From an uncultured delta proteobacterium (GTDB lineage Bacteria; Desulfobacterota; Syntrophobacteria; BM002): DNA of 64,000 nucleotides. The stretch's first letter is position 1, and each line of letters opens with the position of its first letter. The translations under genes were made by a program, and so were the position numbers. This document shows, one piece after another, positions 60,673 to 64,000 of the stretch. The notes beneath the pieces were generated by a model, which saw nothing but the letters and a program-made list of their open reading frames with translations, was not told the DNA's origin and did no database searches. The stretch is from NCBI GenBank assembly GCA_963712115.1, contig CAVQGX010000026.1, forward strand, positions 1 to 64,000. The letters are read 5' to 3'.

Positions 60673-60813
60673 TAACCGCAGAGATCACAAAAGGATAATT
60701 TGAGATTTTAGATTGTAAGATTGCAGATTGCGAAATTCTCTAGTTCCTACTTTTGTCAATCTGCAATCTTCAATCTACAATCTCAAATTATCCTTTTGCG
60801 ATCTCTGTGGTTA
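60673..60813. repeat. Near-perfect 141-bp palindrome (about 57-bp arms)
   Basis: Arms 60673-60730 and 60757-60813 differ by three substitutions and one indel. Confidence 0.9.
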
Positions 60814-60876: not shown

Positions 60877-62280
60877 ATGAGTAAGGATAAATCCATAAAA
60901 GCCAAGATCCTTGTTGTTGATGACGAACAGGGGGCTAGGGATGCCCTACAGGTCATTCTTGAGGATGATTATGAGGTGACCACTGCTGCTGGTGGGCAGG
61001 AGGCAATCGCATATTGTGAGGGTTTTGATTACGATTTAGTTTTTTTGGACGTCGCCATGCCAGAGCTTGATGGCATTGCCACCTTAAGAAGGCTTCGCAC
61101 CATGGACGAGCCCATGGACGTTGTTATGATCTCAGCATCGGACAAAGCGGACAAGGCGGTGGAGTCTATCAAGCTTGGTGCTTATGACTATATCACCAAG
61201 CCTTTTGAGCCTGACGATATACTATCGGCGGTGGATCGGGTTCTGGAGAAACAAACCTTGCAGAGAGAAGTCCGTTATCTGCGCTCTGAAATAGCCCACA
61301 GATATGGGGAACTGGAGATTGTGACAAGGGATTCAACGGTACTGGATATCTTGCAACTTGTAAACAAGGTGGCAAGCGCCGCTAGTTCCGTTCTTATTAC
61401 CGGCGAAAGCGGCACTGGCAAAGAACTGATAGCCAGATCGCTGCACCAGCACGGCGACCGCTGCAAGGCTCCTTTTGTGGCGATTAATTGTGCTGCAATT
61501 CCCAGTGAACTAATGGAGAGCCAACTTTTCGGCCACGAAAAAGGGGCTTTCACCGGGGCCCACACTCGCACCATTGGGAAGTTCGAGCACGCCAATGGCG
61601 GGACCATTTTTTTGGATGAGATTTCGGCCCTTCGCCCTGAGCTGCAGGCGAAACTCCTCCGGGTTATCCAGGACAAAGAGATCGTGCGGCTCGGCAGTAA
61701 CCGGACTATAAAAGTGAACGTCCGTATCCTGGCCGCTACTAATACCAATCTGGAGGACCTTATAGAGGAGGGCAGCTTTCGGCGGGATCTCTACTTTCGG
61801 CTCAATGTCATCCCCATTTATCTCCCGCCTTTGCGCGAGCGGGAAGGCGATGTAAGACTCCTGGCTCAACACTTCCTTAACAGGTTCAACCTGCAGCTGA
61901 AGCGGGAAATGAAGGGTTTTACCGACAAGGCTATTGAAACCCTAGAGCGCTACCCGTGGCCCGGGAACATCCGTGAGTTGGAAAATTTGATCGAGAGACT
62001 GGTCGTACTGGGACGGGAGGGCGACTACATATCATATGAAGACCTGCCATTGGAAATCCTCCTGGATTCCAGCCTTATGACAGAGACTCCCCCCTTGGGA
62101 GATGGATTGCTTCAGGCCCGGGACAATTTCGAGAAGCAATACATCCTCAAAGCCCTGAAAAAGGCGGAGTGGAATCAGAGCGAAGCCGCCCGCATTCTCA
62201 GAATTCATCGGAATACCCTAATCCAAAAAATGAAATCCCTGGCGATCAAGGAATCACCTTCCGCAAGCCCCGCTAAATAG
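60877..62280 (+). CDS. Sigma54-dependent response regulator (NtrC/AtoC family)
   Basis: Receiver (VVDDE, LDVAMP, ITKP), GESGTGKE, GAFTGA, FLDEI, WPGNIREL, Fis HTH; ATG 60877. Confidence 0.96.
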   Translation: MSKDKSIKAKILVVDDEQGARDALQVILEDDYEVTTAAGGQEAIAYCEGFDYDLVFLDVAMPELDGIATLRRLRTMDEPMDVVMISASDKADKAVESIKLGAYDYITKPFEPDDILSAVDRVLEKQTLQREVRYLRSEIAHRYGELEIVTRDSTVLDILQLVNKVASAASSVLITGESGTGKELIARSLHQHGDRCKAPFVAINCAAIPSELMESQLFGHEKGAFTGAHTRTIGKFEHANGGTIFLDEISALRPELQAKLLRVIQDKEIVRLGSNRTIKVNVRILAATNTNLEDLIEEGSFRRDLYFRLNVIPIYLPPLREREGDVRLLAQHFLNRFNLQLKREMKGFTDKAIETLERYPWPGNIRELENLIERLVVLGREGDYISYEDLPLEILLDSSLMTETPPLGDGLLQARDNFEKQYILKALKKAEWNQSEAARILRIHRNTLIQKMKSLAIKESPSASPAK

Positions 62281-62305
62281 TCTTCCTCCTCAATTCACCT
62301 AGCAT

Positions 62306-62660
62306 GACTAGTCACTCGGCAGTAAACACTAGGCACAAAGGCGGTGAGAAGTCAGAGGTCGGAAGTCGGAGGTCAGCAAGGACAGACGACAGAGGTCGGA
62401 GGTCACGTCTGATAATCTAAGATAAAGAGTCTACTAGCTAATAGTCAGTAGGAGTGGCATAGGGCATAGAGTAAATCCCCATGCCTAAAGCCCCTAACTC
62501 TAGGCGCTCTGCGCTCTACGCTTTGCGTCTGTAACAACGGACTACGGACCACGGACAACTGACAAAAAGCCAGATGCCCGCTGCCTGTTTAGCCGGTTTA
62601 GCCGTTGGCCATCAGCCCAGAAAAGAATTCCACCTTCCGCGTTCCGACTTCCGCCGTTAA
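62306..62660. repeat. Composite of heptamer arrays, partly an inverted copy of 42676-42765
   Basis: 31-nt exact inverted match 62345-62375 vs 42696-42726; GCATAGR, ACGGACY and TTCCGCN arrays follow. Confidence 0.8.
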
Positions 62661-62714
62661 ATCCTCGTTTCGCCCGACCTCCCGTTTCGCCGGAGTGCTT
62701 TGCACTCTGCGAAC

Positions 62715-62751
62715 TGCACATTAGCCTGGGCAATGCACAAGATCATGTGCA
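62715..62751. promoter_or_regulatory. Tandem enhancer-like boxes for a sigma54 activator
   Basis: TGCACA-N6-TGGGCA (62715-62732) and TGCACA-N6-TGTGCA (62734-62751). Confidence 0.65.
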
Positions 62752-62937
62752 GTGGCTAGACAAAGCCTGAACTCTTCACAACCTTCCATGGGTAATGCTC
62801 TATATTTTCCAGGCCAGACTATCTTAGACACTGTGCAAACCTATCTGGCAACTAGGAATTTGTCTTCTCTCCAACTGCAATTAATTATTCTGTAATCTCA
62901 TAAGTATAGACGCCAATTCCTCCCCTATTGTCCCCTC

Positions 62938-62953
62938 TGGTACCGACCTTGCT
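62938..62953 (+). promoter_or_regulatory. Sigma54 (-24/-12) promoter
   Basis: TGGTAC-CGACC-TTGCT, 65 nt upstream of ATG 63018. Confidence 0.75.
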
Positions 62954-63017
62954 CTTACTCCCCCCATCTCAGAAACGGGGCACAAATCCTTTACACATAT
63001 GAGAGGAGGGAGAGGCA

Positions 63018-63120
63018 ATGAAAAAGACTAAGAGGATTTTGCTGCAACTACTCATTACTGGAAGCATTATTGCTATGTATGTTCTGCCGGCGCTGGCAAG
63101 CAGGGGGCGGGGGCGCCTAA
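63018..63120 (+). CDS. Short secreted peptide precursor (signal peptide + about 6 aa if one extra base is removed; 63 aa as sequenced)
   Basis: RBS GAGGAGG; MKKTKRILLQLLITGSIIAMYVLPALA is a typical Sec signal with ALA site; TAA 63118-63120 is one base out of frame; terminator follows. Confidence 0.6.
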
Positions 63121-63151
63121 TCACGACCAACGTGTGGTTGGTTGGTGTAAG

Positions 63152-63185
63152 AAGCATAGTCCTTTGGGGCTGTGCTTTTTTTTTG
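63152..63185 (+). terminator. Intrinsic terminator after the peptide gene
   Basis: AAGCATAGTCC-TTTG-GGGCTGTGC-T9. Confidence 0.8.
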
Positions 63186-63275
63186 CAAACTGTCGGAAAG
63201 CTGGTATAGTAAGTATTTCATAGAGCCAAGATAGACGTCTAATTGGTAGACAAATCAGACACGGGATTAAAGCTC

Positions 63276-64000
63276 ATGAAAAGACTACTGTTGCCGTTCG
63301 CTGTTATACTGATGCTTATCATCAGCTGCCAACAGGAGCCTACCGGAACCCCAACGAGTTCAACCGAAGCCACGATAGGCGGTGTCTACCGAGCTGCCCT
63401 TCCCTGGAGTCCGACGAATCTCTGGATCCGCGCCTTCACCACGGATATCTACTCGGTAACTCTAATCCAACAGATCTTTGACGGCTTAGTTCAGTTCGAC
63501 AAGAATCTCAATGTAGTCCCGAGCCTCGCCAGCTCTTGGAAAGTATCGCCGGATCGGCCTTACTTACACGTTTACTCTCCGAGAAGATGCCAAATTTCAC
63601 AACGGCCGACAGGTGACAGCTGACGATTTCGTCTATTCATTTACCCGCATCCTGGATCCAGAGGAGCCAGCAGGCGCACTAAGCTTCTTTGAAAGAGTTA
63701 AGGGGGCGGCGATCCTACCGAAATGGGAAGAGTAAAGAAGTTGCTGGTCTCAAGGCCCTTGATGCTCACACCCTGGAGATAACTCTCAGATGAACCTTTT
63801 GCACCGTTTCTGTCCAGTGTTGGCCATGGCGATTCCAAGGTGGTTGCCCCGAGAAGAGGTCGAACGGTGGGGCAAGGAATTTGGCCATCACCCGGTGGGC
63901 ACAGGTCCCTTCCGCTTGGAGTCTTGGGAAGGGAATCAGATTGTGCTCAGTGCAAATCCTGATTACCACGAAGGCAGACCTTATTTGGATCGAGTTCGTC
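63276..64000 (+). CDS. ABC-type peptide-binding lipoprotein (SBP family 5), runs off the window, several indels
   Basis: Lipobox IISC, QIFDGLVQFD, PSLASSW, TYTFTLR, KFHNG, TADDFVYSF, HPVGTGPF across shifted frames. Confidence 0.88.

Follow-up and report, generated by a model that had tools for sequence, protein, structure and literature searches.

Do relatives of the sulfate-reducing bacteria make a peptide signal of their own, and do they read it through a binding protein that has no transporter? The question is raised by the end of a stretch of 64,000 nucleotides (nt), hereafter the window, which corresponds to positions 1-64000 of the 140-kb contig CAVQGX010000026.1 of an uncultured delta proteobacterium with a genome of 4.9 Mb in 70 contigs. 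A gene of only 33 codons in its corrected frame (63018..63120, + strand) lies there between the gene of a sigma54-dependent regulator and that of a family-5 solute-binding lipoprotein, and an original prediction, made from the letters alone, took the three for a peptide-signalling module. Within the limits of sequence analysis, this interpretation is supported. In our judgement the balance tips slightly towards a Sec-cleaved, glycine-rich peptide that is sensed by the binding protein together with a histidine kinase and that controls its own gene. Anatomy, conservation, coding signature, synteny and the joint divergence of tail and binding protein form the observed part of this model, and a conserved small gene in so many relatives of sulfate reducers suggests a self-made peptide signal in bacteria that are not known for them.

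The small gene and its putative peptide

As sequenced, the small open reading frame (ORF) is 63 amino acids (aa) long, occupies 63018-63209 and runs through a hairpin followed by T9. The original prediction had placed a terminator inside this frame and had proposed that removing one base near 63099 restores a 33-aa precursor with the tail AGGGGA. Both statements were borne out by an alignment of the spacer from the window and 10 related loci, which come from Syntrophobacterales and Deltaproteobacteria metagenome-assembled genomes and have a kinase identity of 79-94%. The intrinsic terminator (63151..63184, + strand) consists of the stem GCATAGTCC/GGGCTGTGC and T9, and against 10 of 10 close relatives the window carries a single surplus A at 63098/63099 (GGCAAGCAGGG vs GGC-AGCAGGG). 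Without that base, the ATG at 63018 opens a 27-aa part that resembles a signal peptide and ends in PALA, followed by A-G-G-G-G-A and the stop codon TAA at 63118-63120; the consensus in the relatives, MKKTKRIL.QLL.TGSI.AMYVLPALA-x-GGGG-x-stop, likewise has 33 codons. A profile built from 10 small-ORF sequences and run against 22 genomes of the order, the window's own included, detected the gene (E<=2e-13) in 15 genomes other than the window's, with one further copy cut by a contig end. All 15 have 33 codons ending in x-GGGG-x, the window being the sole shifted copy; as a statement about the gene, the one-base correction is therefore right.

The same alignment carries the signature of a translated sequence, the variable columns numbering 12, 8 and 21 at codon positions 1, 2 and 3 and the replacements being conservative. 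The small ORF was matched by its hidden Markov model at 1.8e-19 and had no match among Pfam or NCBIfam models. A strong ribosome-binding site, also foreseen by the original prediction, is present as GAGAGGAGGGAGAGG (63001..63015, + strand) before the ATG, and all relatives have an AGGAGG-type sequence there.

The view that the ORF is nearly all signal peptide agrees with our reading, in which 27 of the 33 codons look like one. In 68 parsed family representatives, position -1 of the presumed cleavage site is Ala in every case, position -3 is V (54), A (8), L (3) or I (3), and position +1 is never Pro. Small residues at the cleavage site are the established rule for substrates of signal peptidase I, and the pattern is what one would expect if such a substrate left only a very short product. 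Of the 68 tails, 62 are 5-7 residues long, and glycine makes up 57% of a tail on average; there are 59 distinct tails, their variation sitting at the first and last residues, the latter mostly P, W, F, L or Y. Among 18 aligned sequences from the phylum, L23, P24, L26, A27, G30 and G31 are invariant in all 18, that is, the cleavage-type site and the glycines. The short C-terminal peptide is kept by the homologs, in 15 of 15 genomes of the order and in 68 of 69 family representatives. In 7 of the 68 tails the first residue is a Cys that directly follows V-L-A, a lipobox-like arrangement, and Cys-start members occur at L058:5174-5446, L065, L078, L092, L094 and L106 and in representatives P0016, P0031 and P0032; judging by this motif, some of them might be lipidated and not released.

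The family extends well beyond the order. A profile made from one genus and run against 401 sampled genomes of the phylum matched nine genomes outside the window's family, seven with true small ORFs and two with the signal peptides of long proteins. The tails of the true matches read CGGGGD (in two tandem copies), DGGGGA, WGGGGGD, EGGGY, DEGGW, EGGGY and EGGGW, and at 7 of 7 loci the ORF is flanked by the genes of a Sigma54_activat regulator and an SBP_bac_5 protein. We examined five distant loci over their whole length; one belongs to a second genus of the window's family and the other four to different families. All five hold the core of regulator, small ORF, SBP_bac_5 protein and sCache/HAMP kinase. 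In each, a -24/-12 promoter precedes the ORF, a hairpin with a T-run follows it, and the binding-protein gene has a sigma70-type promoter in front; the outer neighbours vary (FAD oxidase, AhpC, CdhD, a B3_4-domain protein). Because the glycine codons also vary among these loci (GGA, GGT, GGC), the glycine run is kept at the level of the protein, and a G-rich RNA motif was rejected as a candidate.

A scan of 1.84 billion protein cluster representatives with an 18-sequence profile (E<=1e-3) gave 71 matches, of which 69 are tiny proteins, the others being the window's own ORF and one protein of 979 aa; at 50% identity the family comprises about 69 protein clusters. Its named database members are all called "hypothetical protein", and the ESM Atlas clusters are likewise unnamed. 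We also searched 185,579 species genomes with a degenerate DNA pattern for Y-[VA]-L-P-[VA]-L-A-x-G-G-G. This matched 64 loci, 50 of them small ORFs of the family type (about 13 already found by the preceding searches) and 14 chance matches in long ORFs of other phyla. All 50 family loci are from Desulfobacterota, namely Syntrophobacter, Syntrophaceae, Desulfobacula, Desulfotignum, Desulfobacteraceae and the isolate Desulfoferrobacter suflitae DRH4. Conserved synteny, on which the original prediction depended, was evident here: a binding-protein homolog adjoins the small ORF in 46 of the 50 family loci vs 0 of the 14 chance loci, the four exceptions being three contig ends and one insertion-sequence (IS) insertion, and a regulator homolog is present in 37 of the 50 vs 0 of the 14. 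Among 48 parsed family loci, 37 have a strict -24/-12 match at a distance of 72-209 nt before the small ORF (42 have a relaxed one), where about 0.025 strict matches per 220 nt are expected from background, and in 47 a T-run follows within 120 nt of the stop codon.

Four loci of Desulfobacteraceae, Desulfobacula and Desulfotignum (L081, L083, L106 and L119) keep the small ORF, the binding protein and the kinase; in the 2.2 kb upstream they lack both a sigma54 regulator and a -24/-12 site. From their gene content they are a variant under different control, the joint absence being internally consistent. The precursor gene is multiplied elsewhere: locus L115 (2191-3883, - strand) has 11 near-identical copies with a period of 160 nt behind one -24/-12 site, an IS-type transposase gene standing downstream where the binding-protein gene would be, and other tandem arrays of 3 or 2 copies are found at L077, L070 and L058:5174-5446.

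The locus and the divergence of its binding protein

Upstream of the small gene, the regulator gene (60877..62280, + strand) encodes an NtrC-type sigma54 enhancer-binding response regulator of 467 aa, with the four Pfam domains Response_reg (2.7e-30), Sigma54_activat (1.1e-69), AAA_lid_14 and HTH_8 (a Fis-type helix-turn-helix) and with a GAFTGA motif. Its reading frame is intact, the orthologue at locus L006 aligning in one frame with 86% identity. Regulator and kinase resemble AtoC/NtrC and AtoS, with scores below the NCBIfam equivalog cut-offs (the regulator was scored on the L006 orthologue); by its domains the regulator is thus placed in the sigma54-dependent two-component class of the NtrB/NtrC and AtoS/AtoC type, outside the named AtoC and NtrC orthologue groups. 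As is usual for that class, a -24/-12 promoter occurs together with upstream enhancer sites, both conserved. The spacer of about 740 bp between the regulator gene and the small ORF holds two enhancer boxes, TGCACA-N6-TGGGCA at 62715-62732 and the perfect palindrome TGCACA-N6-TGTGCA at 62734-62751; both are kept in the 10 relatives, and the pair also appears as inverted repeat I3. The perfect palindrome has no second exact occurrence in the 4.9-Mb genome. With up to one mismatch allowed there are 10 matches to the box, and only for these two does a -24/-12 sequence follow some 200 bp downstream. That promoter, TGGTACCGACCTTGCT (62938-62953, + strand), is near-invariant across the 10 close relatives, one of which differs at one base. 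The regulator, the two boxes and the promoter are therefore as the original prediction described them.

Downstream, the family-5 lipoprotein that was predicted to bind peptides is present. An SBP_bac_5 gene on the + strand starts at ATG 63276, fills 63276..64000 in the window and runs to about contig position 64885, and a lipobox is present in all nine complete binding proteins of the relatives. The closest solved structures are peptide binders, with 8upi (1e-64) followed by HbpA, MppA, OppA, DppA and PrgZ. The protein belongs to the SBP_bac_5 family (cluster C, oligopeptide- and dipeptide-binding) and lies below every NCBIfam equivalog cut-off. The original prediction had left it to the sequence beyond 64,000 whether a histidine kinase or permeases come next. 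It is a kinase of the sCache_3_2-HAMP-PAS-HisKA-HATPase_c type (contig 64968-66792), succeeded by a receiver-only regulator of 121 aa (contig 66994-67359) and a convergent hydrolase gene. No permease or ATPase genes were found at the window's locus, and 5 of 5 distant loci are likewise without permeases. The binding-protein gene is accordingly no member of an ordinary opp/dpp operon; adjoining a sensor-kinase gene in the absence of ABC permease and ATPase genes, it has the layout of binding-protein-dependent kinases. A relative with a closed chromosome has the same genes intact, encoding 467, 33, 534, 607 and 121 aa. For this binding-protein/kinase operon we located a sigma70-type promoter, TTGCAA-N16-TGGTATAGT (63183..63210, + strand; 9 of 12 matches, with a TG extension), which is kept in the relatives and has a counterpart, TTGACA-N17-TATATA, in another family.

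One feature of the comparison between close species is that the binding protein changes with the peptide tail. Mean identity over nine close species is 75.5% for the binding protein vs 86.2% for the kinase. We compared the 14 species pairs with a kinase identity of at least 90%: binding-protein identity is 86-92% in the 4 pairs with identical tails, 83-88% in the 3 pairs whose tails differ at one end, and 71-77% in the 7 pairs whose tails differ at both ends. In four pairs with different tails, synonymous divergence (dS) is 1.36-2.16 in the binding-protein gene vs 0.11-0.32 in the kinase and regulator genes, and in two pairs with the same tail the binding-protein dS of 0.22-0.39 is like that of the flanks. 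A sliding window places the trough of identity on the binding-protein gene alone (66-83%, with flanks at 88-94%), and the sensor region of the kinase keeps 93-94% nucleotide identity where the tails differ. In one pair the binding-protein gene is nearer than its flanks (dS 0.88 vs 1.6-2.2), which suggests exchange between species. Old alleles of a signal and its putative receptor between young flanks resemble, by analogy, the arrangement of pherotype loci; SGGGGT and QGGGGA are examples of tails that mark two such allele classes.

Proposed circuit, alternatives and known systems

The circuit that we propose would start at the sigma54 promoter, with a self-terminated transcript of about 230 nt, presumably beginning near 62964 and ending at the T9, whose sole product would be the 33-aa precursor, composed of a basic N-terminus, a hydrophobic core, a (V/A)-L-A site of the signal-peptidase-I type and an x-Gly(3-4)-x tail of 5-7 residues. 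Export and cleavage would release a peptide of about 400-500 Da into the periplasm, small enough for porins. The OppA/DppA-family lipoprotein, lacking a transporter, would bind this peptide, probably through the two variable ends held on a glycine spacer, and the loaded protein would dock on the neighbouring histidine kinase at its sCache domain. The kinase would then set the phosphorylation of the NtrC-type regulator, which from the two TGCACA boxes would switch the peptide gene, the receptor genes being transcribed separately from their own sigma70 promoter. Feedback could be positive, or negative as in LuxPQ; we infer its sign, like export, cleavage and binding. A search of the genome gave no second enhancer site, which makes the receiver-only regulator, and in other genomes hybrid kinases adjacent to the operon, candidates for the output. 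A complex prediction for the L006 binding protein (residues 30-534, 14-row alignment) and the 33-aa precursor (18 rows), made without controls, scored 0.24, with the mark at 0.32.

Several points weigh against this circuit. The enhancer has a single target in the genome and no output regulon is visible. The hydrophobic part is better conserved than ordinary signal peptides are (Q/E10, Y21, L23, P24), which could point to a membrane role for the precursor, and 30-33 aa is short for Sec export. The small ORF adjoins the binding-protein gene, and exchange of a linked block could yield joint divergence without any binding; moreover, the sample of close species is small, the species are related, and the pairs were compared without independent contrasts. 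Five of the 21 other genomes from the order gave no match to the gene (they are 72-93% complete, and two consist of a single contig), and true matches were obtained in only 7 of 399 other genomes of the phylum with a model built on one genus. Finally, the window's own small ORF and receptor genes are out of frame as sequenced.

Two alternatives accept the peptide as a protein product and assign it another role. In one, an uncleaved inner-membrane protein of 30-33 aa (N-in, C-out) would modulate the kinase or the binding protein in the manner of MgrB and PhoQ while the binding protein senses an external peptide. We regard this as unlikely. The small gene is the regulator's only evident target, as in small-protein feedback loops, and conserved polar and aromatic positions occur in the hydrophobic segment across the phylum; but the best conservation, in 18 of 18 sequences, falls on the glycines together with the cleavage-type site, the variation of the tail follows the binding-protein gene and not the kinase, and a tethered, mostly-Gly periplasmic stub of 5-7 residues would offer little surface. 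In the other, to which we attach the same low probability, the exported and cleaved peptide is itself the output, a public good or an envelope- or peptidoglycan-related product (a lipopeptide where it starts with Cys), and the binding protein and kinase sense an unrelated environmental peptide. The occurrence of arrays with 2, 3 and 11 copies of the gene suggests a need for high output, the lipobox-like start of the seven Cys tails would suit such a product, and no other output of the regulator is visible. It leaves unexplained, however, why old, tail-matched alleles affect the binding-protein gene alone between conserved flanks, and why 46 of 50 loci keep the small ORF adjacent to an orphan peptide binder.

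The remaining alternatives look to the transcript, and both are far less probable. A sigma54-dependent regulatory RNA, Qrr-like and downstream of a LuxO-type protein, or a dual-function RNA in which the ORF is secondary, is brought to mind by a short terminated transcript that adjoins the gene of its enhancer-binding protein and by a conserved 3' element between stop codon and terminator (GTGTGGTTGGTTGGTG, 63132..63147, + strand), which would serve as seed. These 16 nt form a small hairpin with an upstream ACCAAC and are near-invariant in the window's family, where they are better conserved than the coding region. They are absent from distant families, yet the ORF with its ribosome-binding site is retained there and the peptide pattern survives changes of codon, and the codon-position bias indicates translation. 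A Qrr-type small RNA is non-coding and has a conserved pairing region, whereas here we find a coding ORF and a 3' element confined to one family; Rfam returned no family at the gathering threshold and two sub-threshold matches only. Still more remote, in our estimate, is a leader peptide through which the supply of glycyl-tRNA would control attenuation of the downstream operon, or a membrane peptide like the type I toxins, even though four Gly codons stand directly before stop codon and terminator and the product is small and hydrophobic. Attenuation was rejected when neither the single-sequence fold nor the alignment fold showed a competing antiterminator and the downstream operon proved to have its own conserved sigma70-type promoter; the downstream genes, besides, serve signalling and not glycine metabolism, and an invariant cleavage-type site with variable ends is unexpected for an attenuator or a toxin alike. 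No rival explains the tail-matched divergence of the binding protein as simply as the secreted and sensed peptide does.

How does such a circuit compare with known ones? The Phr precursors of Bacillus (Phr/Rap, RRNPP) consist of a Sec-type signal peptide and a short C-terminal peptide. By sequence rules the features of a Phr-type precursor are all found here (basic N-terminus, hydrophobic core, -1/-3/+1 pattern, short tail), and a family-5, OppA-type binding protein occurs in both pathways. Phr peptides, however, are imported by the Opp permease and act on cytoplasmic tetratricopeptide-repeat (TPR) receptors, and the locus here has neither permease nor TPR receptor; its binding protein is paired with a membrane kinase, and its hosts are diderm Desulfobacterota. 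PrgZ of Enterococcus, an OppA homolog that captures the 7-residue pheromone cCF10, matches our binding protein (4faj, 5.5e-35). The pheromone cCF10 is cut from the signal peptide of a lipoprotein and then imported, whereas here the end of the signal peptide is invariant and the tail varies with the binding protein. The pherotype loci agr and comQXP have a hypervariable segment of signal plus receptor, with old alleles and conserved flanks. Their variable receptor is the kinase, and processing enzymes (AgrB, ComQ) are encoded; in our case the kinase is conserved, and no gene of the AgrB, ComAB or ComQ type was found at the window's locus or at the five distant loci.

Among Gram-negative sensors, AioR is a sigma54 regulator. 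Passages of the review PMC8050422 on binding-protein-dependent signalling describe its system, AioX-AioS-AioR, as a binding protein combined with an sCache-like kinase, and ChiS-CBP of Vibrio as the SBP_bac_5-dependent sensor kinase, and they name no self-encoded peptide ligand. The ligands of these two systems are external (arsenite and chitin oligosaccharides, respectively), and their loci contain no gene for a self-encoded ligand. In the LuxP-LuxQ-LuxO-Qrr circuit of Vibrio, as outlined in parts of PMC8050422 and PMC10162802, an autoinducer reaches the sensor kinase by way of a periplasmic binding protein, and a sigma54 regulator drives a short terminated transcript. That circuit differs in its ligand, autoinducer-2, in the family of its binding protein and in a non-coding transcript, where here the transcript encodes the putative ligand; our regulator also stays far under the cut-off of the LuxO model (326 vs 800 bits).

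All parts are thus of known kinds, and their combination and its occurrence in diderms appear, from these comparisons, to be undescribed. We found no description of the module in the full-text literature (subscription journals being outside its scope), and parts of the Desulfovibrio sigma54 regulome paper PMC4641369 contain nothing on it. Quorum sensing by peptides counts as a Gram-positive trait, for example in the abstract of PMC4363368. With a chance that we put a little short of even, the family could be the first of ribosomally made, Sec-processed autoinducers in diderms, with the form x-Gly(3-4)-x, a readout by OppA-like lipoprotein, kinase and sigma54, and pherotypes exchanged among species of Desulfobacterota, many of them inhabitants of syntrophic or sediment communities. 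If this is true, peptide signalling would extend to the lineages of sulfate reducers and syntrophs. Two specificity residues on a glycine spacer would also make a very simple class of ligand for the study of discrimination by binding proteins, and the family would provide a natural set of apparently orthogonal signal-receptor pairs. A cultured carrier exists in Desulfoferrobacter suflitae DRH4 (locus L065), which makes the idea directly testable; the tail predicted for it is CGGGGR, which might be free or lipidated.

Insertions, reads and minor features

The original prediction had also remarked on insertions in the gene next to the small ORF, and we can put a number to them. Relative to the relatives there are 12 further single-base insertions, 11 in the binding-protein gene (63431-64846) and 1 in the kinase gene (66359). 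Together with the surplus A this makes 13 over 3.3 kb (63098-66359), 12 of them within 1.75 kb, none in a homopolymer, with zero single-base deletions; the genes around this region (regulator, receiver, chaperone and transporter) are intact. Since 12 more insertions fall in the next two genes, the cluster is likely a local assembly-error patch, although the window's copy may instead have been inactivated very recently. With the inserted columns masked, the ratio of nonsynonymous to synonymous divergence (dN/dS) of the binding-protein gene is 0.10-0.15 against six relatives. Because of this value, and because all 13 changes are insertions, a long-standing decay of the window's copy as a pseudogene appears unlikely.

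None of the public sequencing runs compared contained the window's own DNA, the best run sharing 0.14 of the stretch's sampled words, and four runs compared at 80% likeness gave contigs of relatives only. Contigs of relatives from RNA libraries span the small ORF (one 62716-63191, others 63023-63211), a finding by which transcription is not shown.

As to the transcript itself, the terminator pairs are preserved by two-sided changes at 217/230 and 220/227; a simple terminator scanner listed none, the hairpin and T9 being seen in the folds and in the alignment. In the predicted fold of 62958-63015, the leader opens with a C-rich segment (CUCCCCCC) that is paired to the purines of the Shine-Dalgarno region, and the relatives have CCCTCC-type stretches there; according to this fold, the pairing might limit translation.

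Further upstream, the first half of the spacer (62280-62700) contains short-period degenerate repeats like GAGGTCGGA at 62339-62405. In the relatives, the start of the spacer after the regulator gene is only 32-61% identical, with conserved sequence on both sides. Just 5' of the regulator gene lies a nested inverted repeat of about 140 nt (60673-60813), with arms of 43 nt (93% complementarity) and 19 nt (89%) and with short degenerate AGATTG-like units. It could be an element similar to repetitive extragenic palindromes (REP) or miniature inverted-repeat transposable elements (MITE), or an insulating hairpin.

Genome-wide, 62 stretches of at least 1.5 kb lack a stop-to-stop ORF of at least 150 aa. 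The scan does not distinguish errors from non-coding DNA, and some of these stretches may be similar error patches, ribosomal RNA genes or non-coding DNA. A comparable case comes from another public assembly, in which the family representative P0045 ends in ...LPVLAARRRGTVVNSHP, its Gly codons being read as Arg; this looks like a frame slip in the glycine run of the same kind as in the window.

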